Of a stretch of DNA of 32,000 nucleotides, positions 2,246-18,372 are shown piece after piece. This DNA comes from Mycoplasma sp. CAG:776 (GTDB taxonomy: Bacteria; Bacillota_I; Bacilli_A; RF39; UBA660): positions 112,814 to 144,813 of the forward strand of contig FR903077.1 of the NCBI GenBank assembly GCA_000438195.1, in the 5' to 3' direction. The first letter of the stretch is position 1; each line of letters opens with the position of its first letter. The notes below the pieces were generated by a model that had not been told where the DNA came from, searched no databases, and saw nothing but the letters and a program-made list of their open reading frames with translations. Both the position numbers and the translations under genes were made by a program.

Positions 2246-2734
2246 ATGAATAGAGTAGATAAAATTAATTACTATTTAGACATGGCCGAAGTAGCATTAG
2301 AAAGAGCGACTTGCTTAAGAAAGAAATGGGGAGCTGTAATAGTAAAAAATGATGAAATTATCGCAACAGGATACAATGGAGCTCCAAGAGGAAGAAAGAA
2401 CTGTATTGATATAAATTATTGTAAAAGAGAGGCAATGAATATTCCAAGGGGAGAACGCTATGAAATGTGTAGGAGCGTACATGCTGAGGCAAATGCCATA
2501 ATTAGTGCTTCTAGAAAGGATTTATTAGATTCAACGCTTTATATGGTAGGAATAGAAACAACAAATGGCGAATATGTTAAACATGCAAGACCTTGTGCTA
2601 TGTGCAAAAGAATGATAATCAATGCAGGAATTAAAAATATAGTTGTTCGAAATACTAAAAATGAATATGAAATAATTGAAGTGAAAGAATTTATTGAAAG
2701 TGATGAAACGCTAGATACTATAATGGGATATTAA
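2246..2734 (+). CDS. comEB: dCMP deaminase (ComEB family cytidine/deoxycytidylate deaminase)
   Basis: Zinc motifs HAEANAI and PCAMCKRMIINAGI, 162 aa, RBS GGGGAAG 8 nt upstream. Confidence 0.85.
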   Translation: MNRVDKINYYLDMAEVALERATCLRKKWGAVIVKNDEIIATGYNGAPRGRKNCIDINYCKREAMNIPRGERYEMCRSVHAEANAIISASRKDLLDSTLYMVGIETTNGEYVKHARPCAMCKRMIINAGIKNIVVRNTKNEYEIIEVKEFIESDETLDTIMGY

Positions 2735-2747
2735 TATCCCATTTTTA
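2723..2747 (+). terminator. Rho-independent terminator after comEB
   Basis: ATGGGATAT/ATATCCCAT inverted repeat followed by TTTTT. Confidence 0.6.
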
Positions 2748-2828
2748 AATTCAAAAATAGAAAATATCTAGCAATTTTTAAAAAAACATGATAATATTAA
2801 ATAGTAAATAATAAGGACGGGGATAACC

Positions 2829-4451
2829 TTGAAAAAAAGATTTATTTTTGATGAAAATTATATTAAAAAATATGCAAAAAAAGATAGATTAAAATGGTTG
2901 ATCATAGGCTTATCTGCATTAGTTTTAATAGTGGTTATAATTATCGTTATTTTAGCTACCAGAAATGACACTGCAGATCCAGTAGATCCCGCCGTACCAT
3001 CATTTAAAATAAAAGATGAGTTAATAATAGAAGCAGGGTCTACATTACCAGATGTTACAGATTATTTTGATACTTTAGAAAATATTGATATTGATGAAAT
3101 AGAAATAATATATCCAGATGAATTTGAACTAAGCTATGATACTTCTTTGTGTAGTGAAAAAGAAATAGAAGAGTTATTTAGTGAAGAAAATCCAAATTAT
3201 GAGAATTATGAATGTATACAAAATTATTTAATTATACCAGCAACATATGGTATTACCATTAAGTTACAAGAGGAAGAATATACGGTAAATTTAATTGTAG
3301 AAGATAGTAAAGCCCCAGTATTAATTACCAAAAATGTAGAAATATATGAGGGAGATACTTATGAATTAAGTGATTTTGTTAATACATGCTTCGATACAAC
3401 AAGTGAATGTGATATCACATATTATACAGGTGATAAAGACGCTGAAGGAAACCCAATTGATTATTCTAATATTACCGCAGTGGGTGAACATACAATTAAA
3501 ATTATCGCAACTGATGATTATGGTAATATTACAGAACCAGTAGAAGCAAAATTAACAATATTAGAAGCTGAAGGTGAAATGTATACTGTTACTTTTGATT
3601 CAAATGGTGGAACTACTATTAGAAGTAAAAAAGTAAATGAAAACGATATTGTTATTAAACCAACCGAGCCAAAAAGAGAAGGATATAAATTCTTAGGTTG
3701 GTATTTAGGAGATGAAGAATTCGATTTCGATACTAAAATAACATCCAATATAACCCTAACAGCCAAATGGGAAAAAATAAATGAAGGCGGAGGAAGCCAA
3801 GGTGGCGGAACAGTTAATGTGACAAACGTTTCCTTAAATTATAAAAAAATCTATTTAAAAATAGGAGAAACAAAAACAGTAACAGCTAAAGTAAGTCCTT
3901 CTAATGCAACGAATAAAACAGTTACATGGAGTAGTTCTAATAATAATATAGCAACAGTATCAAATGGTAAGATTACCGGGAAAAGTGCTGGAACCGTAAC
4001 AATTACAGCAACGGCTGGAGGAAAATCAGCAAGTGTAGAAGTAGTAGTAAGTAACTCAAGTGGTGGTACAACATGTACCTATGGTGATACTACTTATAAT
4101 CCAAGTTATGTTTTATCTGTAAATTTAACCCAAAATAATTGCGCAGTCAATCCAAATTCTACACCAAATGAAACGTTATCAACTAGTGATTATTCTAGAT
4201 TAGTAAGGGATTTAAATGATATAGGCTTAAGAGTAACAGGTAATAATTTTGCACATAAAGTAGAACGACAAAAAATAAAAAATACTAGTGGTACTGGACT
4301 AGTAGGATATCAAATAACAATAACTGTAAGTATTGTAGATACTGATAATCCATATGCAGTTTTAACATCAAAATATATTTTAAAATCTGATGGCTCAAGA
4401 CAATTTTTGCAAAATAACATATGTAAAAATGGAATATGCCTAAATAATTAA
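2829..4451 (+). CDS. Membrane-anchored surface protein with a Listeria-Bacteroides (Flg_new) repeat and a Big_2 Ig-like domain
   Basis: TTG start after AAGGACGGGGA. N-terminal TM LIIGLSALVLIVVIIIVILA. 'YTVTFDSNGGT...REGYKFLGWY...ITLTAKW' is the Flg_new repeat signature. 'VTNVSL...IGETKTVTAKVSPSNATNKTVTWSSSNNNIATVS..GKITGKSAGTVTITAT' is a Big_2 signature. Cys-containing C-terminal domain. Confidence 0.8.
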   Translation: MKKRFIFDENYIKKYAKKDRLKWLIIGLSALVLIVVIIIVILATRNDTADPVDPAVPSFKIKDELIIEAGSTLPDVTDYFDTLENIDIDEIEIIYPDEFELSYDTSLCSEKEIEELFSEENPNYENYECIQNYLIIPATYGITIKLQEEEYTVNLIVEDSKAPVLITKNVEIYEGDTYELSDFVNTCFDTTSECDITYYTGDKDAEGNPIDYSNITAVGEHTIKIIATDDYGNITEPVEAKLTILEAEGEMYTVTFDSNGGTTIRSKKVNENDIVIKPTEPKREGYKFLGWYLGDEEFDFDTKITSNITLTAKWEKINEGGGSQGGGTVNVTNVSLNYKKIYLKIGETKTVTAKVSPSNATNKTVTWSSSNNNIATVSNGKITGKSAGTVTITATAGGKSASVEVVVSNSSGGTTCTYGDTTYNPSYVLSVNLTQNNCAVNPNSTPNETLSTSDYSRLVRDLNDIGLRVTGNNFAHKVERQKIKNTSGTGLVGYQITITVSIVDTDNPYAVLTSKYILKSDGSRQFLQNNICKNGICLNN

Positions 4452-4556
4452 TAAGAAGAGTGGAGCCCATTCTTCTTTTAGTATGATTAAAAAATACCAT
4501 TGAAAAATTCTCAATAATATGGTATAAATAATAACAGAATAGAGGAGAAAGAAAAG

Positions 4557-5784
4557 ATGAAAAGAAAAATCTTAATCCTCTCAACAGCACTATTAATAGT
4601 AGTTGGGGGGGGGGGTATCTTAAATTAAAAGATACTAACAAAGAAGGAGAATTAGTAAGTGCTGAAACTTTAAAAGAAAAAAGTTTAGTAGGTATTTATA
4701 TTGAAGAAGATAATAATTATACAAAGGTAGATCAAATACCAGATACAGGATATACCATTAATGAGGAAAAAAGCTATTGTAAGATAGGTGATGAACTACA
4801 AGATATGACCATCACTTATGATATGAATACAAAAACGCTAAGTATTGCTCCAATGACAATGAAAGGAACAAAATGCTATTTATATTTTGATGAAGAACCA
4901 ACATTAAAAGATACCATATTAGCAAATAGTAAAGTAAATGAAGGAACACCAAATTTTGCAAATGTAGCAACAAAAGGCGAAGGAATATACAAGACCCAAG
5001 ATGATTGGGGAGATAGTTACTACTTTAGAGGAGATGTAAAAAATAATTGGTTAAAGTTTGCAGGTTACTATTGGCGAATAATCCGGATCAATGGAGATGG
5101 AAGTATCCGAGTAATCTATAATGGAAAAAGTACTGCAATGGACGGAAATGATACCGTAATAAGTAGCTCACAAGTTTTTAATTCTAATAAAAATCAAAGC
5201 GAATATGTAGATATATGTACACCGAAGGAGAGCAACATGGAAATATAACGAATAGTTCAATCAAAGGAGTATTAGATAGTTGGTATAGTAGTAATCTAGC
5301 AAGTTATGCGGATAAGATAAGTACCGAAGCTGGATTTTGTGGAGATAGAAATTTAGAAAGCGGATCATGGAGTAGTACAGGGTCAAAACTTTATGCCGCA
5401 TACGGAAGATTAGCAGATAATAAAGCACCAACATTAAAATGTAGTAATAGTAGTGATTTATATACAACCTCATCAAGTAGTAAAGGGAATAAAAAACTAA
5501 CCAATCCAATCGGACTAATCACAGCTGATGAGGTTAGTATGGCCGGAGGAGTATTTGGAAGCAATAATAATAGTTACTACCTATATAATAAGGAAGATTA
5601 TTGGACCATGTCTCCATCTAACTTTCGCAGTAATCTTGCTCTCGTGTTCTATGTGCGTTCATATGGTGACCTCAACGGTACGAACGTGAATAATCCAATT
5701 GGTATCCGCCCAGTTATCAATATAGCAAGTAATGTAGCAATAAAATCCGGAAATGGCACATCTTCCGAACCGTATGAAATTTAA
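4557..5784 (+). pseudogene. Disrupted / phase-OFF secreted protein with a C-terminal lectin-like (DUF1566/CLec-style) module
   Basis: ATG 4557 with RBS GAGGAGAAAG encodes the signal-anchor MKRKILILSTALLIVVGGGG, then stops at 4626 because of the 11-G run. One extra G joins it to the 4805..5248 frame. A second one-base shift near 5191-5215 separates that frame from 5215..5784 (…YWTMSPS…ALVFYV…GIRPVINI). Confidence 0.75.
4605..4615 (+). repeat. Homopolymeric G(11) tract inside the signal-peptide coding region
   Basis: Counted directly: gtt-GGGGGGGGGGG-tatc. This is the only long G/C homopolymer I saw in this AT-rich window. Confidence 0.95.
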
Positions 5785-5798
5785 TTTTTTTCAAAATA

Positions 5799-5855: not shown

Positions 5856-7661
5856 TTATCTATTTCCTCTAAAACGATCTTTTGGATCTAATATTTTCTT
5901 ACGTAAACGAATATCTGTTGGCGTAACTTCTACTAATTCATCATCTTCAATAAATTCTAAAGCTTCTTCAAGAGTAAACTTTTTAGGTCTAGTTAAATTA
6001 ATAGCCTCATCACTACCACTAGCTCTTGTGTTAGTTAAATTTTTATTTTTACAAGGATTAACATCTAAATCATTATCTCTATTATGAATACCAATAATCA
6101 TACCAACATAAACTTCTGTTGCTGGTTCAATGATTAAAGTACCTCGGTCTTCTAAATTCCATAAAGAATAACCTAAAGCTTTTCCATTTTCCATTGAAAC
6201 TAAAACGCCATTTTTTCTTCTAGCAATAGCACCCACATAAGGTTTATATTCTGAAAAACTTCTAACCATAACACCCTCACCTTTAGTATTGGTAATAAAA
6301 GCACTACGATAACCAATCAATCCTCTAGTAGGAGCTGAAAATTCTAAATGAACATAATTATTTTCTTCGTTATTAGTAATAACTTCTAAAGTAGCTTTTC
6401 TTTCTTGTAAATCATTAATAATTGTACCTGAATAATCATTTGGGACATTGATAATAACTTTCTCAAATGGCTCATATTTCTTTCCATCTCTTTCTTCTAA
6501 TAATACTTCTGGTTTAGAAACAGAAAGCTCATAACCTTCTCTTCGCATGTTTTCAAGTAGTATAGATAAATGGAGCTCACCACGACCACTAACTTTAAAA
6601 CCATCTGCACCCTCTAACTCTTCAACAACTAAACCAACATTAGTCTGGAGTTCTTTTTCTAATCTTTCTCTAATATGTCTAGAAGTTAAAAATTTACCAC
6701 TTCTACCAGCAAAAGGAGAAGAATTAACTAAGAAATTCATAGACAAAGTTGGTTTTTCTATATGAATAGGAGGTAATGGATCAATAACTCCTTTTTCACA
6801 AATAGTATCGCCAATTGAAATATCACTACAACCAGCAATAGTAACAATATCACCAAAATAAGCAACATCTTTTTCTACTCTTCTAATACCTTCGTTAACA
6901 AATAATTTACTAATACGAAAACATTCTTCTTTTCCATCATTTTTAATTAAGGTAACAGTCTCGCCATTTTTAATTTTACCTTTATTAATACGACCAACCC
7001 CAAGTCTTCCGATATAATCATCATAATCTAGATTAGAAATTTGAAGTTGTAAAGGATCATTTTCATTTCCTTTAAAAGGTTCTACTTGTTTTAAGATAGT
7101 TTCCAATAAAGGCTCTATATTATTACTTTCACTATCTAAAGAAAGTTTAGCAATACCCTCTTTAGCAATCCCATAAACGATTGGAAAATCAAGCTGTTCA
7201 TCTGTAGCATTAAGTTCCATAAAAAGATTAAATGTCATATCAACAACTTCTAAAGGTCTTGCATCTTTTTTATCAATTTTATTAATAAATAAAATTGGTT
7301 TTAAGTTTTGTTCTAAAGCTTTACTTAAAACAAATCTTGTTTGAGGCATAGGGCCTTCTGCTGAATCGACAAGTAAAATAACCGTATCAACTGTTTTAAT
7401 AACTCTTTCTACTTCTGATGAGAAATCAGCATGACCAGGAGTATCCACAATATTTATTTTAATATCTTTATAACGAATAGCACAATTCTTAGAATAAATA
7501 GTGATACCTCTTTCTTTTTCAAGATCATTAGAATCCATTACTCTTTCTTCTACTACCTCATGACTATTAAAAACACCATTTTGTTCTAGTAAAGCATCTA
7601 CTAAAGTACTTTTACCAGCATCAACATGGGCAACCACAGCAATATTTATGATTTTTTCCAT
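5856..7661 (-). CDS. typA: Translational GTPase TypA/BipA
   Basis: G1 AHVDAGKST, G3 DTPGH, G4 NKID. EF-G-like domains with the BipA-specific C-terminal domain. 601 aa. RBS AAGGAGCG. Confidence 0.95.
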   Translation of the reverse strand: MEKIINIAVVAHVDAGKSTLVDALLEQNGVFNSHEVVEERVMDSNDLEKERGITIYSKNCAIRYKDIKINIVDTPGHADFSSEVERVIKTVDTVILLVDSAEGPMPQTRFVLSKALEQNLKPILFINKIDKKDARPLEVVDMTFNLFMELNATDEQLDFPIVYGIAKEGIAKLSLDSESNNIEPLLETILKQVEPFKGNENDPLQLQISNLDYDDYIGRLGVGRINKGKIKNGETVTLIKNDGKEECFRISKLFVNEGIRRVEKDVAYFGDIVTIAGCSDISIGDTICEKGVIDPLPPIHIEKPTLSMNFLVNSSPFAGRSGKFLTSRHIRERLEKELQTNVGLVVEELEGADGFKVSGRGELHLSILLENMRREGYELSVSKPEVLLEERDGKKYEPFEKVIINVPNDYSGTIINDLQERKATLEVITNNEENNYVHLEFSAPTRGLIGYRSAFITNTKGEGVMVRSFSEYKPYVGAIARRKNGVLVSMENGKALGYSLWNLEDRGTLIIEPATEVYVGMIIGIHNRDNDLDVNPCKNKNLTNTRASGSDEAINLTRPKKFTLEEALEFIEDDELVEVTPTDIRLRKKILDPKDRFRGNR

Positions 7662-12109: not shown

Positions 12110-12138
12110 TTGAAATAATATAAATTTTTTGATATGAT
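12110..12138 (+). promoter_or_regulatory. Putative strong sigma-A promoter of the first TasA-like gene
   Basis: TTGAAA-17 nt-TATGAT with a TGA extended -10, followed by the perfect SD AAAGGAGG. Confidence 0.5.
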
Positions 12139-12168
12139 TTTTACAGTAAAGGAGGTAAGACAATAGTT

Positions 12169-12846
12169 ATGGAAAAGAAGAACACAATTCTTTTGACAGT
12201 AATCGCAGTAGCTACTCTATTAGTTGCAGTAGTAGGTGCAACATTTGCATACTTCACAGCAACTACTGGTAATTCAGGAGATACATCTTCAACTGGAAAA
12301 GTACAAACTGCAAAAGTAGCAAGTGTAACATTAAAAACTGCAGCAGCAGGAACTTCAAATACAACAATTTATCCAGGAACAACTAACTATGCTGGAATGA
12401 CAGTTGTAGCTGAAAAAACTGGAGATAATGCCGCAGCTGACACAAGAGATTACAATGTTACTTACACATTAAAAGGTGAAGTTAAGTTAAGTGAAGAATT
12501 TACTGCTGGAAAAGTAACTTACAGTGTTTACAGAACTGAAAGCCCAGTTAGCAATCCAGTTACATGTCAAGAAGTAACTTCAACTGGTGCTAAATATTCT
12601 CAAACTTGTACTTTAGCAAAGGAACTTGAAAGTGCTACAAAAATAGTTGATAATCAAGAAGTAAGTGGAACTACTGCAACTATTAGTGTTGGTGATCAAG
12701 TTCGTTCAACTGCAGGCGGAACATATTATTACTATTTAGTAGTATCTTATGAAAATCTTGAATCAGATCAAAATGCTGATCAAGGAAAAACTATTACAGC
12801 TTCATTAACTACTCCAGATATTACAGGAACAGCAGAGGCTGAATAA
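12169..12846 (+). CDS. Secreted TasA/camelysin-like fibre subunit candidate with SipW-cognate signal peptide
   Basis: N-terminus MEKKNTILLTVIAVATLLVAVVGATFAYFTATT matches the SipW-cognate signal-peptide class (…G.TFAYFT/S.). T/A/G/V-rich beta-type sequence. Biased, GC-richer codon usage suggests high expression. Own promoter and terminator. Confidence 0.8.
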   Translation: MEKKNTILLTVIAVATLLVAVVGATFAYFTATTGNSGDTSSTGKVQTAKVASVTLKTAAAGTSNTTIYPGTTNYAGMTVVAEKTGDNAAADTRDYNVTYTLKGEVKLSEEFTAGKVTYSVYRTESPVSNPVTCQEVTSTGAKYSQTCTLAKELESATKIVDNQEVSGTTATISVGDQVRSTAGGTYYYYLVVSYENLESDQNADQGKTITASLTTPDITGTAEAE

Positions 12847-12873
12847 TAGCAACAAAAAACTATTGAAAACCTA

Positions 12874-12901
12874 AAATCTATCATAAAGATAGATTTTTTT
12901 T
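12874..12901 (+). terminator. Rho-independent terminator after the first TasA-like gene
   Basis: AAATCTATC-ataaa-GATAGATTT followed by a T-run. Confidence 0.75.
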
Positions 12902-12971
12902 GACCCTTAATATAAGATATAGCTCGTCATACCAATATATAGTATAATATAAATTATATGGTGGTGATGAC

Positions 12972-14150
12972 ATGGAAAAGAAAGAAATACTAGAAGCAAT
13001 AGAAATTCTTAGAAAATATAACTCTGAAACAAATAGAATAGAAGCCAAAAGTGCAGTTAAATGATTTCCTAAAAATGTTATGACACTTTTTCAAGCTTTT
13101 CTAATAAATATGGTAGAATAATAATTTTTGGATTAAGCGAAGAAAATAATTTTAAAACAGAAGGAATATATGATGTTAAAGATCTTCAAAGAAAAATAAC
13201 CAATTTATGTAAGATTCTATAGAGCCTTCATTGCGATGTGATATATTACCAACAGAATTTGAAGGTAAGAATATTTTAGCAGTCAAAATAGAGGAATTAC
13301 CTCAAAATAAAAAACCATGCTTCTATAAACCAAAAGGATTAAAAAATGGATCATATATAAGAGAGGGTGATTAGATGAGTTAATGACAGATTATGAAATT
13401 TATGCACTCCAAAGTTATAATGATCACGTTATAGAAGATAAAAGACCGACAAAAAATTCTAATATAGAAGACCTAAATTTGCAATCAATCAATAATTATA
13501 TAGAGAAAATAAAAATAGATAAACCCAACTTTGCAAAAAATAGTTTTGAAAAAAGTCTAAAATTATGTGGAATAGTTGACAGTGTTGGTCAAAAAATTGT
13601 TCCTACTCTTGCAGGAACTTTAATCTTTGGAGATTATCCTCAAAGTTATTATCCTCAATTATTTATTGCATGCGCTGTTATTCCAAGGACAACAATTGGT
13701 GAAGTTGGAAATTTAAGAGAACGTTTTATAGATAATAAAAGGGTAGAAGGCACAATTGAAGAAATGATTTAGGAAACTATGAATTTTTCTAAGAAGAAAT
13801 ATGAAAAACAAAATAATCATAAATTCAAATGGTGAAAGAATAAATAGTACAAAATATCCTCTAAAAGCATTAAGAAAAGCAGTAGCTAATGCTCTAATAC
13901 ATAGAGATTATAGTATAGAAACAGAAAATGCATATATTTCTGTATATGTATGAAGATAGAATTGAAATAATTAATCCAGGAGCTTTATATGGCATGAATA
14001 AAATTGAAAAATTAGGGACTTCGGTAGTAATGGAAATCCGAATATTATAAGAATATTAGAAGAAAAAGGATCAATAATTGAAAATAGACATACAGATATT
14101 TCAACAATGAAAAGAGAAATAAATAATAAAAAAGAATACTTAATTGGAAT
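12972..14150 (+). pseudogene. Decayed AlbA_2 (Schlafen-like) / ATP-binding transcriptional regulator gene
   Basis: Starts ATG 12972 (RBS GGTGGTGA). In-frame TGA at 13062. Homologous segments are scattered over all three frames (…IIIFGLSEENNFKTEGIYDVKDLQRKITNLC / DSIEPSLRCDILPTEFEGKNILAVKIEELPQNKKPCFYKPKGLKNGSYIREGD / MTDYEIYAL… / …YPLKALRKAVANALIHRDYSIE…DRIEIINPGALYG). Only 13383..13772 remains as an ORF. Confidence 0.75.
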
Positions 14151-14191
14151 GAACATATTCATTTCTTTTTATGTAAAATAAAGAAAATGTA

Positions 14192-14220
14192 TTGAAAAAA
14201 AAGTAATAATTTGATAAGAT
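14192..14220 (+). promoter_or_regulatory. Putative promoter of the second TasA-like gene
   Basis: TTGAAA-17 nt-TAAGAT with TGA just upstream of the -10. Same architecture as the 12110 promoter. Confidence 0.4.
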
Positions 14221-14246
14221 TAAAGCATAATATGGAGGTCTTAGTA

Positions 14247-14795
14247 ATGAGTATTGGAAAGAAAAATGTAATTTTAGCAGTAGTATTATGTATATCAATT
14301 TCTGTTATAGGCATATCATTTGCTTATTTTACAAGTGGAGTAACTGTAAGTGGTGAAGGAAGTAAAACAGAATTAAAACCAGCAGATATGTTAAAAGTTA
14401 GTTATGATGCAGGATCAAATTCTATAAATTTAGCAAATGCAATGCCAGGAACAACAGCAAGTAAAGATTTTAGTGTAACAGTTACACCAACAGAAAGTGA
14501 AAAAAGTGTAACTTATGCAATTGTATTAGATATTAGTAACAATAATTTTGAAAAAGTTAATGTAAATGAACTAGAATATACACTAAAAAGTAAAGAAGGA
14601 AGCGTTTTAAGTAGTGGAGATTTAACTGAAGCTCAAGGGAAAATTACTTTGTTAAAAGAAACAAAAACAGTCGAAACAGCAACAACTTTTGAGTATAGTT
14701 TAGAAATTACTTATAAAGAAACTGGATCAGATCAAAATCATAATGCTAATAAGACATTTAGCAGCAATTTAAAGGTTGAGTTTGCTGAAGCATAA
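14247..14795 (+). CDS. Second secreted TasA-like protein with SipW-cognate signal peptide
   Basis: Best start is ATG 14247 (RBS ATGGAGGT). MSIGKKNVILAVVLCISISVIGISFAYFTSGV signal. The mature part aligns by eye with the C-terminal domain of the downstream repeat protein. Confidence 0.8.
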   Translation: MSIGKKNVILAVVLCISISVIGISFAYFTSGVTVSGEGSKTELKPADMLKVSYDAGSNSINLANAMPGTTASKDFSVTVTPTESEKSVTYAIVLDISNNNFEKVNVNELEYTLKSKEGSVLSSGDLTEAQGKITLLKETKTVETATTFEYSLEITYKETGSDQNHNANKTFSSNLKVEFAEA

Positions 14796-14841
14796 GTGAA
14801 AAAAATATGTTAGAAATGTGATAAAAAATCAATTTTTGATA

Positions 14842-14870
14842 TTGCAAGTAATAAATGGTTATGTTATACT
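14842..14870 (+). promoter_or_regulatory. Putative sigma-A promoter of the repeat-protein gene
   Basis: TTGCAA-17 nt-TATACT. The -10 and flanking 26 nt are repeated at 9240-9265 on the minus strand. Confidence 0.45.
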
Positions 14871-14894
14871 TTTAAATAGTAGGGAGTGTTCCAA

Positions 14895-17486
14895 ATGAAC
14901 GATAGCAATTTACAAGAACAATATGCATTATTAGAAGAGGAGAAAAAAGAAAATAACAAAAAAACTATTATAATTATTATCTTATGTATTTTAATTATTT
15001 TAGTAACAATTTTAGGAATAGTATTTTCATTATCTGGACGCAAGAAAACATGTACAATAAATTGTGATTTAGATGGTGATGGCATAATTGAAACCAACAT
15101 TGATTTAGATGGCGATGGAATTTGTGACGTTAACTGCGATACTGATGGTGATGGTAAACCAGATATTAATATTGATTGGAAAGGTGATAGAAAACCACAT
15201 TTCAATATTGATACAGATGGTGATGGAAAGCCAGATGTTAATTTAGTAAATAAGGATACAGATGGTGATGGAAAACCAGATTTCAATATTGATTTAGATG
15301 ATGACGGATGGCCTGATATTAATATTGATTTAGACAATACAAATACTTGTGATTTAAATTGTGATACTGATGGCGATAATAAACCAGACATAAATATAGA
15401 TGCTAATGGTGATGGCAAACCAGATGTAAATGTGGATACCGATGGAGATGGTAAACCAGATAAAAATTTAATAGATCAAGATACTGATGGTGATGGTGTA
15501 TGTGATTTAAACTGTGACACCGATGGTGATGGTTTTCCAGATACAAATATTGATACAAACGGTGATGGAAAACCAGATTTGAATATTGATAATGACAATG
15601 ATGGTGTGTGTGATGTAAATTGCGATACCAATAATGATGGTAAACCAGATGTAAATATTGATATAGATGGTGATGGTAAACCAGATATAAATGTAGATAC
15701 CGATGGCGATGGAAAACCAGATGAAAATAAAACAAATCAAGATACTGATAATGATGGTGTATGTGACTTAAATTGTGATACGAACCATGATGGCAAACCG
15801 GATATCAATATTGATATAGATGGTGATGGAAAACCAGACATTAACATCGATACTGATGATGATGGTGTATGTGATATAAATTGTGATACTGATGGTGATG
15901 GAAAGCCAGATATCAATATTGATACTGATAATGATGGAACATGTGATTTAAATTGTGATACTAATGGCAATGGAAAGCCAGATATCAATATTGATGCTGA
16001 TAATGATGGAACATGTGATTTAAATTGTGATACTGATGGCGATGGCAAACCGGATATAAATATTGACTATGATGGCGATGGCAAACCAGACTTTAATGTA
16101 GATACTGATAAAGATGGCAAACCAGATAAAAATTTAACAGATCAAGATACCAATGGTGACGGTGTATGTGACCTAAACTGTGATACAGATAAGGACGGCT
16201 TCCCAGATACTAATATTGATATAGATGGTGATGGAAAACCAGACATTAACATCGATACTGATGGTGATGGAAAACCAGACATTAACATTGATGTAGATAA
16301 AGATGGCAAACCAGATGTAAATATCGATACCGATGGTGATGGCAAACCAGATGAAAATTTAACCGACCAAGATACCAATGGCGATGGTGTATGTGACTTA
16401 AATTGTGATACTGATGGTGATGGAAAACCGGATACTAATATAGATGTAGATGGTGATAAAAATCCAGACATTAACATCGATACTGATAATGATGGAGTTT
16501 GTGATTTAAATTGTGACACTGATGGCGATGGTAAACCGGATACTAATATAGATGTAGATGGTGATGGCAAACCAGACATAAATATTGATACCGATGGTGA
16601 TGGAAAGCCAGATGAAAATTTAACCGACCAAGATACCAATGGTGATGGCGTATGTGATCTAAATTGCGATACCAATAATGATGGCAAACCAGACACTAAT
16701 ATAGATGTAGATGGCGATGGTGTATGCGATCTAAATTGTGATAATAATGGTGATGGTGTATGTGACACAAATTGTGTAGGAGAGCTATATAGTAGTGCAG
16801 ACTTAAGCAGTTTAAAAGTAGGAAACTATACATTAAAACCAAGCTTTAATAAAGATATTACTGATTATACAGTTGAGGTTGATAGTAATTTAACCGAAGT
16901 ATTAGTAAGTGCAACAGCTGTAAATTCAAAATCTAAAATAATTGGAGCTGGAACAGTAAAACTAACAAGTGACTCAACAAGAGTATCAATTACCGTAATT
17001 GCTCAAAATGGAAAGACTAAAACTTATAATATTACAATTAATAAAGCTAAGAACCCTAGTACTTCTGAAGAAGGAAGTGGAAATGTAGATATTGGGACAT
17101 CAGAAAATGGAATTTTAACTGTAAGTTTTACAAAGCCAATGTATGCAACAAATATATGGCCAGGATGGACGGGAATACACGAATTTACAATAAAAAATAA
17201 TTCTGATAAAGCTGTTGTGTATAATATAAATTTAATAAATGTAACAAATACATTTACAAGTGATAATTTTGTATACACCCTAGTAAAAGATGGAAAAACA
17301 CTTATCACTAAAACTCCAGCTTTAAAATCAGATGGTAAAGTAATTGAAAACCTAGTGATAGCACCTGGAGAAACAGCTGTTTTCCAAATGAATTATGAAT
17401 TTGTAGAAATTGGTAAACCACAAGATTATGATCAAGGTAAAAACTATAAAGGAACCATAGAAATACAAATTGTATCTGCAAATTAA
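14895..17486 (+). CDS. Membrane-anchored giant Asp/Cys-rich calcium-binding repeat protein (thrombospondin type-3-like repeats, cadherin-like beta-sandwich, TasA-like C-terminal domain)
   Basis: ATG 14895 after TAGGGAG. N-terminal TM IIIIILCILIILVTILGIVFSL. About 570 aa of DxDGDGKPDxNID units punctuated by 15 CxxNC motifs. 'LSSLKVGNYTLKPSFNKDITDYTVEV…ITVIAQNGKTKTYNITI' fits the cadherin-like beta-sandwich pattern. The last ~130 aa resemble the two small TasA-like proteins. Confidence 0.85.
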   Translation: MNDSNLQEQYALLEEEKKENNKKTIIIIILCILIILVTILGIVFSLSGRKKTCTINCDLDGDGIIETNIDLDGDGICDVNCDTDGDGKPDINIDWKGDRKPHFNIDTDGDGKPDVNLVNKDTDGDGKPDFNIDLDDDGWPDINIDLDNTNTCDLNCDTDGDNKPDINIDANGDGKPDVNVDTDGDGKPDKNLIDQDTDGDGVCDLNCDTDGDGFPDTNIDTNGDGKPDLNIDNDNDGVCDVNCDTNNDGKPDVNIDIDGDGKPDINVDTDGDGKPDENKTNQDTDNDGVCDLNCDTNHDGKPDINIDIDGDGKPDINIDTDDDGVCDINCDTDGDGKPDINIDTDNDGTCDLNCDTNGNGKPDINIDADNDGTCDLNCDTDGDGKPDINIDYDGDGKPDFNVDTDKDGKPDKNLTDQDTNGDGVCDLNCDTDKDGFPDTNIDIDGDGKPDINIDTDGDGKPDINIDVDKDGKPDVNIDTDGDGKPDENLTDQDTNGDGVCDLNCDTDGDGKPDTNIDVDGDKNPDINIDTDNDGVCDLNCDTDGDGKPDTNIDVDGDGKPDINIDTDGDGKPDENLTDQDTNGDGVCDLNCDTNNDGKPDTNIDVDGDGVCDLNCDNNGDGVCDTNCVGELYSSADLSSLKVGNYTLKPSFNKDITDYTVEVDSNLTEVLVSATAVNSKSKIIGAGTVKLTSDSTRVSITVIAQNGKTKTYNITINKAKNPSTSEEGSGNVDIGTSENGILTVSFTKPMYATNIWPGWTGIHEFTIKNNSDKAVVYNINLINVTNTFTSDNFVYTLVKDGKTLITKTPALKSDGKVIENLVIAPGETAVFQMNYEFVEIGKPQDYDQGKNYKGTIEIQIVSAN
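15051..16775 (+). repeat. Coding tandem-repeat array (short ~10-13-codon DxDGDG units nested in a higher-order repeat of about 260 bp)
   Basis: Near-identical DNA blocks, e.g. 16326-16455 versus 16586-16715 (gataccgatggtgatgg…gatgaaaatttaaccgaccaagataccaatgg…). Repeated gatggtgatgg(a/c)aaaccaga motifs throughout. Confidence 0.9.
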
Positions 17487-17495
17487 AAAAGAGAA

Positions 17496-17522
17496 AGTAA
17501 ATATAAAAGTATTTACTTTTTT
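17496..17522 (+). terminator. Rho-independent terminator after the repeat-protein gene
   Basis: AGTAAATA-taaaag-TATTTACT followed by TTTTTT. Confidence 0.7.
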
Positions 17523-17534
17523 GATGGAATAATC

Positions 17535-17563
17535 TTGTATTTTAAGAAGTTATAAGCTATAAT
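17535..17563 (+). promoter_or_regulatory. Putative sigma-A promoter of sipW
   Basis: TTGTAT-17 nt-TATAAT. RBS AGGAGGGG precedes ATG 17590. Confidence 0.45.
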
Positions 17564-17589
17564 ATATAATAGAATAGGAGGGGCTCAAC

Positions 17590-18372
17590 ATGAAAGGTAG
17601 AAAATTTTCATGGCAAGCAATTGTCCATATTATTTTTAAAATATTATCATGGGCTCTTTTTATAATCCTTTTACTAATAGCTATTTTTCTTTTATATTAT
17701 TATATAGCAAATAAAATTTATGTTAAAAATGGACCAGGATATGAACCAAAATTTTCAATATATACTATAGCATCTGGATCTATGGTACCAAATATAAACA
17801 TATATGATGCAGTTATAAATATGCGTATTGATGACCCAAATGATTTAAAAGTAGGAGATGTTATCACATTTCGTTCCTCAAATCCAACAAATATTAATAT
17901 GACAGTAACTCATAGAATTAAAGCAATAACAAAAGATTCAGATGGAAACGCTTGTTATGTAACAAAAGGTGACGCTAATCCAATAGAGGATGAAGTATGT
18001 GCAAAATATAAAAATGTCATAGGAAAAGTTATTATAAGAATTCCTGGAGTTGGCCATATACAACGTTTCTTGGCATCAGGAATAGGATGGATGTTATTTA
18101 TTCTGATACCCGCTTTGATTATTATTGGTAAAGATATTATGAAGATAACTAAGCTTTCATCAATCAAAGAAAATGCTAGTAAAATGACTGATAAAAAACG
18201 AAAAGACCCTAAAAAAGAAGCAGCTGAGAAAAAACGAAAAGAAGAAATAAAAAGAAAATTATTAAATGAAAATAAAGGAACTAAAGAATACTATCGTGAT
18301 CCAACTATCAAAATAATTGAGAAGAAAAAAACTAAAAAAGAAAATGATAAACAAAAACGAAAGAAAAAATAA
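17590..18372 (+). CDS. sipW: Signal peptidase I, archaeal/ER type (SipW-like), with an extended Lys-rich C-terminal tail
   Basis: N-terminal TM. Catalytic Ser box IASGSMVPNINIYDAVI, His box VTHRIKAI, KGDANP box. Second TM GIGWMLFILIPALIIIG. Then about 80 aa of K/E/R-rich sequence. Confidence 0.85.
   Translation: MKGRKFSWQAIVHIIFKILSWALFIILLLIAIFLLYYYIANKIYVKNGPGYEPKFSIYTIASGSMVPNINIYDAVINMRIDDPNDLKVGDVITFRSSNPTNINMTVTHRIKAITKDSDGNACYVTKGDANPIEDEVCAKYKNVIGKVIIRIPGVGHIQRFLASGIGWMLFILIPALIIIGKDIMKITKLSSIKENASKMTDKKRKDPKKEAAEKKRKEEIKRKLLNENKGTKEYYRDPTIKIIEKKKTKKENDKQKRKKK

Follow-up and report, generated by a model that had tools for sequence, protein, structure and literature searches.

We propose that a four-gene set in the genome of Mycoplasma sp. 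CAG:776, an uncultured gut bacterium, most likely specifies a surface protein fibre related to TasA, the biofilm fibre of Bacillus. The set lies in a 32,000-nucleotide stretch of contig FR903077.1 (assembly GCA_000438195.1, positions 112,814 to 144,813), hereafter the window, and codes for two small secreted proteins (S1 and S2), a giant repeat protein (G) and a signal peptidase. We consider it probable that together these constitute a surface-fibre module of the TasA superfamily, either a pilus or a matrix system, equipped with its own SipW-like signal peptidase, wherein S1 would be the major subunit, S2 a minor subunit and G a membrane anchor presenting an acceptor domain. The four open reading frames, the FAYFT signal motifs and the SGSM, THR and KGDAN boxes of the peptidase all lie where the original prediction had placed them. 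Its core reading, namely a SipW-type peptidase, TasA-like secreted subunits and a membrane-anchored repeat protein of calcium type acting as anchor or nucleator, agrees with independent evidence in the form of a TIGR02228-type peptidase, the reach of the S2 sequence profile, a structural match to 8aur, the paralogy of S1 and S2, and the conserved co-localisation of the genes. The features of the locus, in coordinates of the window, are as follows.

12110..12138, + strand: promoter of S1, found by scan (-35 TTGAAA, 17-nt spacer, extended -10 TGaTATGAT)
12150-12156, + strand: Shine-Dalgarno sequence AAGGAGG in the 5'UTR, downstream of the S1 promoter
12169..12846, + strand: S1, putative major fibre subunit (225 aa; N-terminus ...LLVAVVGATFAYFTAT)
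12873..12905, + strand: terminator-like hairpin after S1 (AT-rich, 10-bp stem, then a U run)
12962..14150, + strand: decayed gene (SLFN_AlbA_2 and HATPase_c_4 domains) with several stops and frameshifts, between S1 and S2
14247..14795, + strand: S2, putative minor subunit, adaptor or nucleator (182 aa; N-terminus ...SVIGISFAYFTSG)
14886..17486, + strand: G, putative giant stalk or anchor protein (866 aa from GTG; 863 aa from the ATG at 14895)
14886..15035, + strand: N-terminus of G, comprising an acidic cytoplasmic stretch that is conserved (LQEQYALLEEEKKENNKK) and the TM helix at aa 27-49
15051..16778, + strand: Asp/Cys-rich repeat stalk of G (aa 56-631)
16806..17045, + strand: cadherin-like beta-sandwich of G (aa 641-720; PF12733, 28-32 bits against a cut-off of 24.2)
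17088..17486, + strand: Gc, the subunit-like (TasA-superfamily) C-terminal domain of G (BLASTP against S2, E 4e-6)
17491..17522, + strand: terminator-like hairpin after G (AT-rich, U run; z -2.6)
17590..18372, + strand: archaeal/ER-type signal peptidase I, SipW-like (260 aa)

The assignment of the peptidase to the archaeal/ER type was borne out by the TIGR02228 model, which it matches with 94 bits against a cut-off of 51.85, while the bacterial-type model TIGR02227 gives 22.5 bits against 47. Its boxes ASGSM (61-65), THR (107-109) and KGDAN (126-130) contribute residues S64, H108, D128 and, just beyond them, D134, each at least 95% conserved in 46 orthologues, and the enzyme is predicted from this conservation to have Ser-His-Asp catalytic residues in place of the bacterial Ser-Lys dyad. 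It is not an equivalog of Bacillus SipW (NF046067, 79.2 bits against 190), from which it also differs in an 80-aa basic tail: two TM helices are accompanied by this Lys-rich cytoplasmic extension, and a charged C-terminal tail of 70-190 aa is present in all 46 orthologues.

S1 and S2 are paralogues (BLASTP E 5e-8; hhalign of S1 against the S2 family 98%, E 3e-14), with S1 homologous to S2 along its full length. The expectation that both would be recognized by the models for SipW-cognate signals (TIGR04088) and Peptidase_M73 did not hold at curated thresholds: S1 matched neither in HMM scans, and S2 reached 13.8 bits against a TIGR04088 cut-off of 19 and had no match to Peptidase_M73. Likewise, neither protein matched PF12389, NF046066 (TasA) or TIGR04090 (BsaA) at E<=0.1. 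Two S2 orthologues lie just over the M73 gathering score of 22.5 (P0166 with 25.3 bits and P0160 with 22.9 bits), these matches covering only positions 10-73 of the PF12389 profile. The S2 profile, which retrieves 2148 representative proteins, reaches further: among 66 mid-range matches (E 1e-12 to 1e-30) that were scanned, 38 matched Peptidase_M73 (best E 1.4e-10), 9 the TasA model NF046066, 8 the BsaA model TIGR04090, which does not match the window's own proteins, and 5 TIGR04088. This transitive, profile-level evidence supports the placement of S1 and S2 in the TasA superfamily by remote homology. In direct comparisons, the S2/M73-like profile A4 found AbpX chains as its best, albeit weak (E 0.07), matches among PDB sequences, and alignment of the family profile with the single TasA sequence extended over only the N-terminal 70 columns (hhalign, 50%, E 1.6e-4).

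The structural model of S2 (pLDDT 92) appears to be a TasA-like beta-sandwich: a Foldseek search of the PDB ranks the TasA fibre 8aur_A first (TMq 0.48, E 3.3e-4, prob 1.0), followed by donor-strand pilins. The processing signals point in the same direction: mature TasA starts at A28 (GGGTWA|AFND), in register with the predicted cleavage sites of S1 (VGATFA27|Y28FTA, after a SipW-type signal peptide at residues 1-27) and S2 (IGISFA26|Y27FTS), such that both hydrophobic segments end in G-x-[TS]-F-A and are followed by an aromatic residue at the second mature position. Downstream of the predicted cleavage site, 15-20 residues are modelled with low confidence in S1 and S2 alike, as would be expected of a free donor strand.

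G most likely starts at the ATG at 14895, given the better spacing to its Shine-Dalgarno sequence and the agreement with the 863-aa gene call in the closest relative, L001. Its stalk is 30% Asp, contains 15 CxxxC pairs and is built from 12-residue units of the form D-x-[DN]-x-[DN]-G-x-x-D-x-N-[ICV], of which 42 are strict, the total reaching about 45-47 when degenerate copies are counted. The thrombospondin type-3 (TSP3) array is known as a "calcium wire", and DxDxDG is a calcium-binding motif class. The stalk of G resembles TSP3 in its tandem Asp-rich D-x-D-x-D-G-x-x-D loops with interspersed Cys pairs, but the Pfam TSP_3 model finds nothing in G, its period is strictly 12 with two alternating unit types (KPDINI and VCDLNC), and its calcium binding is putative; the FG-GAP calcium-loop HMM matches 10 stretches of it (29.7 bits). 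Besides the cadherin-like domain and the FG-GAP calcium loop, the Pfam and NCBIfam scans of G gave nothing other than compositional MSCRAMM matches, and they showed no homology to TapA. At the end of G, however, the original prediction overlooked what by sequence comparison is a complete subunit-like domain: Gc, the C-terminal 130 aa, aligns with profile A4 at 99.65% (hhalign, E 5e-25) and with profile A1 at 90%. G accordingly joins a subunit-homologous domain to a membrane anchor within a fibre locus, the combination that characterizes the fibre-anchor class, and some 50 loci of its family preserve TM motif, repeats and Gc domain alike.

The same TM motif raises the question of whether G stays in the membrane, and G may instead be cleaved and released, because the motif is that of the cleaved substrates. 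The helix ends in G44-I-V-F-S48, conforming to the G-x-x-F-[AS] motif of the subunit signal peptides, and the wider G-x-x-[FY]-[AS]-[YL] motif is kept, along with the EEQYxxLL segment, over about 50 orthologues in the same position as in S1 and S2, in some cases nearly identically to S1 (e.g. FGATFAYV in L030). In the same kind of fibre system, the peptidase could cut at G-I-V-F-S48|L49 and release G to become a very long spacer or cross-linker of the fibre or matrix; the N-terminus exposed by the cut would serve as a short donor strand, the C-terminal domain would accept a strand in turn, and the stalk would act as a spacer dependent on calcium. Judged by the -3/-1 rule, S or A at -1 is compatible with cleavage by SPase I, as is the V or I found at -3 in the clade of the window. 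Against this, position -3 is F or Y in many orthologues (LGLFFAY, LGLYFAY), residues that canonical type I signal peptidases disfavour there; the long conserved acidic cytoplasmic segment (EEQYxxLLxEEKE) is atypical of a discarded signal peptide; only 6-18 residues separate the motif from the first Cys/Asp repeat, short for a donor strand; and with G released, the locus would offer no other means of keeping the fibre attached to the cell. We therefore regard release of G as unlikely, though the foremost competitor of the anchored state.

S1 departs from S2 in several respects. Its mature part is all-beta, with C133 and C147 invariant, but its model (pLDDT 83) has no significant match in the PDB (best E 3e-3, TM <=0.33): TasA is absent from the top 50 matches, and the only matches are weak ones to jelly-roll capsid structures. 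S1 is hypervariable, with 63% identity where its neighbours show 92-95%, and is multicopy in relatives; paralogues within one genome are identical to the last nucleotide over about 120-135 nt that span the 5'UTR and signal peptide, downstream of which their variable bodies are only 22-52% identical, an arrangement resembling the vsp, vpma and vsa expression-site systems of Mycoplasma. S2 evolves more slowly and is missing from some relatives.

Such variability and copy number would fit any exposed surface antigen and, together with the lack of a significant structural match between S1 and either TasA or any donor-strand pilin, could mean that S1 and S2 do not polymerise into fibres, being instead monomeric secreted or surface-coat antigens, adhesins, or a 2-D lattice like the AbpX meshes. 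They would then merely need a dedicated peptidase, with G an independent calcium-dependent adhesin sharing the export route. The first annotation of TasA-family proteins was as proteases (camelysin, Peptidase_M73), but S1 has no His residue at all, and a role as a zinc protease is hence ruled out for it. The full-length homology of S1 to S2, whose nearest structural neighbours are the TasA fibre and then donor-strand pilins, also speaks against non-polymerising proteins. Furthermore, the fusion of a subunit-like domain to a membrane stalk is most readily understood if subunits dock there, and in published work all experimentally studied members of the superfamily form donor-strand polymers. 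We accordingly consider this explanation improbable, more so than release of G.

A feature that counts against the fibre model as we favour it is the near-invariance of the whole hydrophobic segment of S1, which a simple cleaved signal peptide does not explain: residues 1-31 are invariant or nearly so among proteins just 38-66% identical overall, whereas S2 signal peptides vary normally, and third codon positions in the segment are only about 47% identical between genomes, arguing for selection on the peptide, although the set was filtered on the motif and this result is partly circular. That the segment is so conserved because it is retained as a functional transmembrane or core helix, as in type IV pilins, is nonetheless very unlikely, given that the locus has no class III (prepilin) signal, G/F-E+5 motif, prepilin peptidase or pilus ATPase but does have a dedicated signal peptidase, that the motif aligns residue-for-residue with the proven SipW cleavage site of TasA, and that an unbiased profile search returned a graded series of related signal peptides with no single fixed helix.

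The extended -10 promoter and AAGGAGG Shine-Dalgarno sequence claimed for S1 are both present and are kept in 18 related loci, across which the TTG of the -35 element and the TG and TA...T of the -10 element are invariant even as the S1 proteins are only 33-65% identical. The supposed high codon bias of S1 was not upheld, as its ENC of 34.9 falls within the window's range of 26-42. The idea that each gene has its own terminator survives in part: the hairpin 3' of S1 (-8.9 kcal/mol, z -3.75) is equalled by 0 of 200 shuffles and that 3' of G by 3 of 200, but a shuffle test of the region 3' of S2 revealed no convincing terminator hairpin (z -1.6).

In comparisons of gene neighborhoods, the anticipated co-localisation of subunit genes and repeat-protein gene proved to be conserved far outside the range of local synteny. 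Dozens of genomes of uncultured gut Bacilli carry the module, which consists of S1, G, the peptidase and, as a rule, S2, and among them are genomes with different flanking genes; the order S1...G...peptidase is retained in loci that have lost the Tex/FemAB flanks, and in most loci examined G has the subunit genes on one side and the peptidase on the other. The decayed gene between S1 and S2 is missing from L001 and is an insertion outside the fibre system.

In the anchored-fibre model, S1, S2 and G would enter the membrane via N-terminal hydrophobic segments ending in G-x-[TS]-F-A-Y-F, and the peptidase, an ER/archaeal-type Ser-His-Asp enzyme, would cut S1 and S2 after the Ala, at the position used by SipW in TasA. 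The cut would expose an N-terminal Y-F-T... extension, flexible in the monomer, which could then insert as a donor beta-strand into the next subunit, by analogy with the TasA, AbpX and Tafi fibres, and yield a polar non-covalent polymer. The strong conserved promoter, hypervariability and multicopy state of S1 in relatives suggest that it is the major subunit, while the slower evolution and sporadic absence of S2 point to a minor adaptor, nucleator or tip subunit. An uncleaved or poorly cleaved signal-anchor would keep G in the membrane, and its stalk of about 575 residues, with DxDxDG-type repeats braced by CxxxC pairs, probably stiffens with calcium and spans the wall. As Gc has no free N-terminus, it could only accept a strand and would therefore capture the last subunit and keep the fibre attached to the cell surface.

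Loci of the TasA superfamily with dedicated TIGR02228 peptidases, minor subunits and anchors bearing subunit domains have precedents in AbpX (bioRxiv 10.64898/2026.01.04.697558) and in TafF of the haloarchaeal Tat-fimbriae (Tafi), which comprise TafA/TafE/TafC, the anchor TafF and the peptidase TafD (PMC11821415). Tafi resemble the present locus in having a signal peptidase I of their own, a major as well as a minor subunit, and a subunit-like domain on a membrane protein, which is predicted to take up the final donor strand and thereby anchor the filament (PMC11821415). In TafF, however, this domain is N-terminal and the TM helix C-terminal, the reverse of G, which in addition has the long calcium-type stalk; moreover, Tafi subunits take the Tat pathway, whereas the locus described here has no twin-arginine motif, nor was a separate tip adhesin identified in it. 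AbpX loci (PDB 9rhp, 9sj2) likewise have a TIGR02228 peptidase adjoining the subunit gene, minor subunits and anchors predicted to join by strand complementation, and share the aromatic residue at mature position 2. They differ in that anchoring in bacterial AbpX loci is to the wall, through SLH or LPXTG, rather than by a signal-anchor, that the AbpX-associated peptidase has ten TM helices instead of two, and that AbpX holds calcium at the strand-exchange interface via an acidic residue at mature position 4, which is absent from S1 (YFTA) and S2 (YFTS), the calcium-type motifs here being in the stalk.

With the tapA-sipW-tasA system of B. subtilis (PDB 8aur, 5of1) the locus has in common a dedicated ER/archaeal-type signal peptidase adjoining secreted beta-sandwich subunits, signal peptides that terminate in G-x-T-[FW]-A and whose cleavage sites, predicted in the present case, align with each other, the TasA fibre as nearest solved structure to the S2 model, and a major subunit with an accessory protein of related fold. 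It differs in its host, a lineage of uncultured gut Bacilli, in subunits that miss the Peptidase_M73 and TasA HMM thresholds, in a peptidase below the equivalog score, and in genes that form no tight operon; in the absence of a TapA homologue it has G, a stalk of 863-866 aa that is predicted to be membrane-anchored at its N-terminus and has about 45 DxDxDG repeats ahead of its subunit-like C-terminal domain. A further parallel is sipW-bsaA of C. perfringens, BsaA (TIGR04090) being a Bacillota family of SipW-dependent polymerising matrix proteins, although the available part of its description (PMC11580942) mentions no giant stalk protein.

Taken jointly, these features could be read more boldly, albeit as a doubtful proposition in its entirety, as a cell-anchored pilus of uncultured gut Bacilli that would be the third such type in Gram-positive bacteria and would need neither sortase nor type IV machinery. 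Here a calcium "wire" stalk anchored in the membrane would offer its acceptor domain as the base on which TasA-like subunits polymerise; the TM helix of the stalk would mimic a substrate signal peptide and so template assembly at the dedicated peptidase, the basic tail of the peptidase and the acidic N-terminus of the stalk would pair in the cytoplasm, and S1 would undergo cassette-type antigenic variation. More conservatively, the sequence comparisons suggest that the locus is a variant, not previously described, on the known TasA-type theme, adding to it a long calcium-type stalk and a subunit-like acceptor domain, with the putatively calcium-binding, membrane-holding stalk protein G itself previously undescribed.

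The four open reading frames (ORFs) named in the original prediction all exist in the window, which has a G+C content of 23-35%, and the motifs quoted for them (VVGATFAYFTAT, IGISFAYFTSG, SGSM, THR and KGDAN) are present in the sequence. They and a decayed gene lie in the following order:

12169-12846, forward strand: S1, putative major fibre subunit (225 aa ORF)
12962-14150, forward strand: remnant of a SLFN_AlbA_2 + HATPase_c_4 gene, broken by several in-frame stops and by frameshifts, inserted in the 1.4 kb gap between S1 and S2
14247-14795, forward strand: S2, putative minor subunit (182 aa ORF)
14886-17486, forward strand: G, giant putative stalk and anchor protein (866 aa from GTG; 863 aa from ATG at 14895)
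within G, forward strand, between the transmembrane (TM) helix and the cadherin-like domain: stalk, ~575 residues of 12-residue units
within G, forward strand, just upstream of the C-terminal subunit-like domain (Gc): cadherin-like beta-sandwich (PF12733, 28-32 bits)
17590-18372, forward strand: SipW-like signal peptidase (260 aa ORF)

As its orthologues begin MS[IV]GKKN, we place the start of S2 at ATG 14247 and not at TTG 14211. For G the ATG at 14895 is the likelier start, because it lies at Shine-Dalgarno spacing, 9 nt downstream of GGGAG, and agrees with the 863-aa gene call in L001, the closest related locus. Upstream of the locus, a 540-aa ORF (2829-4451, forward strand) has orthologues in L001 and L004 with Flg_new and Big_2 domains, which make it probably another surface protein; its synteny is conserved.

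Searches with models for Peptidase_M73, TIGR04088 and TIGR02228 had been proposed as a check on the two small proteins and the peptidase; the peptidase was recovered (94 bits against TIGR02228), whereas S1 and S2 stayed below thresholds, neither matching any Pfam family, Peptidase_M73 included, with TIGR04088 giving S2 13.8 bits, under its cut-off of 19, and S1 no match at all. The two are nonetheless paralogues by their sequences, being 26% identical in BLASTP (E 5e-8), with alignments of the two families matching over their full length (hhalign, 98%, E 3e-14). A search with S1 matched 2063 clusters (E<=1e-3), of which the 120 top-ranking ones listed carry neither a Pfam domain nor a source name, and the S2 family profile recovered 2148 proteins at E<=1e-3 from the 1.84 billion representative proteins scored. 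When 66 mid-range matches to the latter profile (E 1e-12 to 1e-30) were scanned, Peptidase_M73 from Pfam was found in 38 (best E 1.4e-10), NCBIfam TasA, named for the Bacillus subtilis biofilm fibre protein, in nine, the BsaA family in eight and TIGR04088 in five; two S2 orthologues just passed the M73 gathering score. Sequence searches of the PDB with the S1 and S2 profiles gave weak matches to AbpX, from a known TasA-superfamily fibre system (E 0.07), and nothing else, and alignment of the family profiles with a single TasA sequence (hhalign) was weak and limited to the N-terminal part. The AlphaFold model of S2 (mean pLDDT 92, 107 aligned sequences) finds the TasA fibre 8aur_A as its best PDB match (E 3.3e-4, prob 1.0, TMq 0.48 on a query length that includes the signal helix), followed by chaperone-usher donor-strand pilins. 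For the S1 model (pLDDT 83), Foldseek returned nothing significant from the PDB, only weak matches to jelly-roll capsid proteins. We conclude that S2 is a divergent TasA-superfamily protein, and that S1 belongs to the superfamily via S2, its fold being predicted by homology and not by a direct structural match.

Because the mature TasA chain begins at A28 (its sequence having been checked against PDB 8aur), SipW cleavage can be placed at GGGTWA/AFND, and in register with this site are VGATFA27/Y28FTA in S1 and IGISFA26/Y27FTS in S2. The 15-20 residues past the predicted cleavage point are of low confidence in both models, a pattern consistent with an unbound N-terminal donor strand. Residues 1-31 of S1 (12169-12261), MEKKNTxLLTVIAVATLLVAVVGATFAYFTA, are invariant or close to it among homologues sharing 38-66% identity, and the third codon positions of this N-terminus are ~47% identical between genomes, a partly circular figure as the set was filtered on the motif. 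S2 signal peptides show normal variation, and in an unbiased profile search the related signal peptides formed a graded series. Dual use of the region, with the alanine preceding the cleavage site and Y-F opening the donor strand, accounts for part of the S1 N-terminal conservation; the constraint on the hydrophobic core goes beyond what such dual use, or export and cleavage alone, would explain.

The giant protein had been regarded as foreign to the subunits; it proves instead to be part of the same protein family through its C-terminal domain. Its last ~130 residues align with mature S2 (BLASTP E 4e-6), and an alignment of 48 orthologous C-termini matches the S2/M73-like profile (99.65%, E 5e-25) as well as the S1 profile (90%); a homology search with the C-terminal region returned six matches, all unnamed. 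The stalk consists of 42 strict 12-residue units (~45-47 including degenerate ones) of the form D-x-[DN]-x-[DN]-G-x-x-D-x-N-[ICV], in which the types DTDGDGKPDINI and DTDGDGVCDLNC alternate; it has 15 CxxxC pairs and 30% Asp, and ten of its units align with the calcium-loop part of the FG-GAP model. Matches of G to the staphylococcal MSCRAMM proteins ClfA/Sdr were rejected as compositional, being far under the cut-offs. At the N-terminus the acidic segment LQEQYALLEEEKKENNKK precedes a TM helix whose last residues are G44-I-V-F-S48. About 50 orthologues keep the acidic EEQYxxLLxEE segment, the helix and a terminal G-x-x-[FY]-[AS]-[YL] that lines up in register with the signal peptides of the subunits, this motif being near-identical to that of S1 in some (e.g. 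FGATFAYV in L030). Across loci G ranges from 390 to 1279 aa, always with the TM motif, the Asp/Cys repeats and Gc.

The score of the peptidase against TIGR02228 (archaeal/ER-type signal peptidase I) is well over the cut-off of 51.85; it fails TIGR02227, the bacterial Ser-Lys model, and at 79 bits lies below the 190 required by the Bacillus SipW equivalog model. Across 46 orthologues taken from related loci, S64, H108, D128 and D134 each reach at least 95% conservation, and we take these to be the Ser, His and Asp residues expected of this signal peptidase class (SipW, Sec11). The charged cytoplasmic tail that follows the second TM helix in all 46 is 70-190 aa long, and motifs such as RKxxLKRKLL and EPDP recur in it; the window's version is an 80-aa Lys-rich stretch (18133-18372) with 33 Lys or Arg. 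Bacillus SipW, at 190 residues, is too short to accommodate one. The acidic N-terminus of G (14886-14966, EEQYxxLLxEEKE) and the basic peptidase tail are both cytoplasmic and both conserved, and a charge-based contact between them is conceivable.

The genome matches, all metagenome-derived, come nearly entirely from metagenome-assembled genomes labelled uncultured Bacilli, Tenericutes or Mycoplasma sp., the others being Clostridium sp. CAG:609 and Candidatus Onthocola, which is classed as Bacilli incertae sedis; sample sources include rabbit, mouse, chicken, human and ruminant gut. Close relatives have the gene order Tex, S1, S2, G, peptidase, FemAB (reverse strand), DUF308 and HSP20. More distant loci without Tex and FemAB (e.g. 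L029, L030, L036, L041, L046, L048-L051, L053, L061, L063-L065, L067, L071, L072 and L077-L079) still have one to three copies of S1, then G, then the peptidase, and some of them lack S2. The predicted co-localization of the small proteins with the repeat protein thus extends to relatives even where the flanks differ.

A consensus scan of this AT-rich DNA gave about as many promoter-like sites as chance would (48, with 44.8 expected) and, downstream of the locus genes, no terminator of the GC-rich kind; it was superseded by phylogenetic footprinting for the promoter and by folding for hairpins. The near-consensus extended -10 promoter claimed for S1 is borne out by its footprint: in TTGAAA-17-TGaTATGAT, the TTG of the -35, the TG and the TA...T of the -10 are invariant in 18 loci, some with an S1 only about one-third identical, making this predicted promoter well supported. 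The view that each gene has its own terminator holds in part, with AT-rich hairpins and U runs after S1 (z -3.75) and G (z -2.6), whereas the S2 region is unconvincing. The supposedly highly biased codons of S1 turn out to be ordinary (ENC 34.9 against 26 to 42 for window genes), which eliminates codon bias as a sign of high S1 expression.

S1 is also the most variable gene of the locus. The S1 of the window and that of L001 (10001-10684) are 63% identical, against 92-95% for Tex, S2, G, the peptidase and FemAB; L033 and L034 give the same ranking, with S1 fastest, then S2 and G, and the peptidase evolving at nearly the pace of housekeeping genes. The pattern fits an exposed major subunit under diversifying selection or subject to allele replacement. 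S1 is multicopy in 13 of 74 loci, for instance:

L043, 109-924, reverse strand; 2718-3452, forward strand; 5025-5789, forward strand: S1 copies
L053, 1673-2443, reverse strand; 4356-5114, forward strand; 6638-7399, forward strand: S1 copies

Within-genome paralogues have in common a 100% identical nucleotide block (e.g. in L043, L053, L021, L040, L042 and L055) that begins 14-39 nt before the ATG and reaches nucleotide 71-125 of the coding sequence; in most pairs it ends at 92-99, the end of ...FAYFTA, and past the block the amino-acid identity of the copies falls sharply to 22-52%. They are found in either orientation, and the DNA preceding the block differs from copy to copy. This arrangement suggests concerted evolution, gene conversion or cassette exchange and switching at a constant 5' block; the vsp, vpma and vsa systems of Mycoplasma show comparable cassette switching. 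No recombinase was found between the S1 paralogues of L053, where the ORFs, judged by eye, resemble an AAA ATPase, a Fic protein and a transposase of the IS200 type, without evident fibre link, and one encodes an unknown protein. In the window, the ORF list and a motif scan give a single S1 copy, and the decayed gene beside it is not in L001. With insertions next to S1 in both the window and L053, the S1 flank looks like an insertion hotspot.

The best-supported reading of these observations is a donor-strand fibre of the TasA superfamily with a dedicated peptidase, for which we infer cleavage, polymerization, the roles of the components and calcium binding. S1 would be the major subunit, given its conserved strong promoter, fastest evolution and multiple copies in relatives, and S2 a minor one, acting as adaptor, nucleator or tip. 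G would be the cell-proximal anchor, its embedded subunit-like domain accepting a strand with no free N-terminal strand to donate, and its long stalk, probably calcium-stiffened, could span the cell wall; the nearby FemAB and LysM genes suggest that the cell has one. The cleavage-type motif common to G and the subunits would also accommodate the main rival, in which the fibre stays but G, cut by the peptidase at this motif, is set free to serve as a cross-linker, although two features speak against such cleavage: the cytoplasmic segment that G conserves and, in many orthologues, an F or Y at -3. As an anchor, G would mirror the predicted role of TafF in the haloarchaeal Tafi system (PMC11821415) and the SLH and LPXTG anchors of bacterial AbpX loci (bioRxiv 10.64898/2026.01.04.697558). 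A type IV pilin is ruled out by the lack of a prepilin signal and of pilus machinery, and a zinc protease of the camelysin kind by the absence of any histidine from S1.

The literature already describes loci of the SipW/TasA type that combine a dedicated TIGR02228 peptidase with minor subunits and subunit-like-domain anchors, so the locus is not a new kind of system; a literature search for one in RF39-type bacteria found nothing relevant. What is new is a large family in uncultured gut Bacilli, without Pfam or source annotation among the matches examined, together with a predicted anchor combining signal-anchor, DxDxDG/CxxxC stalk, cadherin-like domain and subunit-like domain, a peptidase subfamily with a long charged tail, and an unusually constrained S1 signal peptide, whose extreme conservation would make it a convenient marker of loci of this type. 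TasA-superfamily fibres are an emerging chaperone-free donor-strand polymer system common to bacteria and archaea, and with this locus a large protein family joins the superfamily (2063 clusters for S1, 2148 representatives for the S2 profile). If our reading is true, it would add a calcium-dependent element to fibre display, and the fibre would be a candidate major surface structure of abundant, never-cultured gut lineages, one that probably serves as a major antigen or as a phage receptor.
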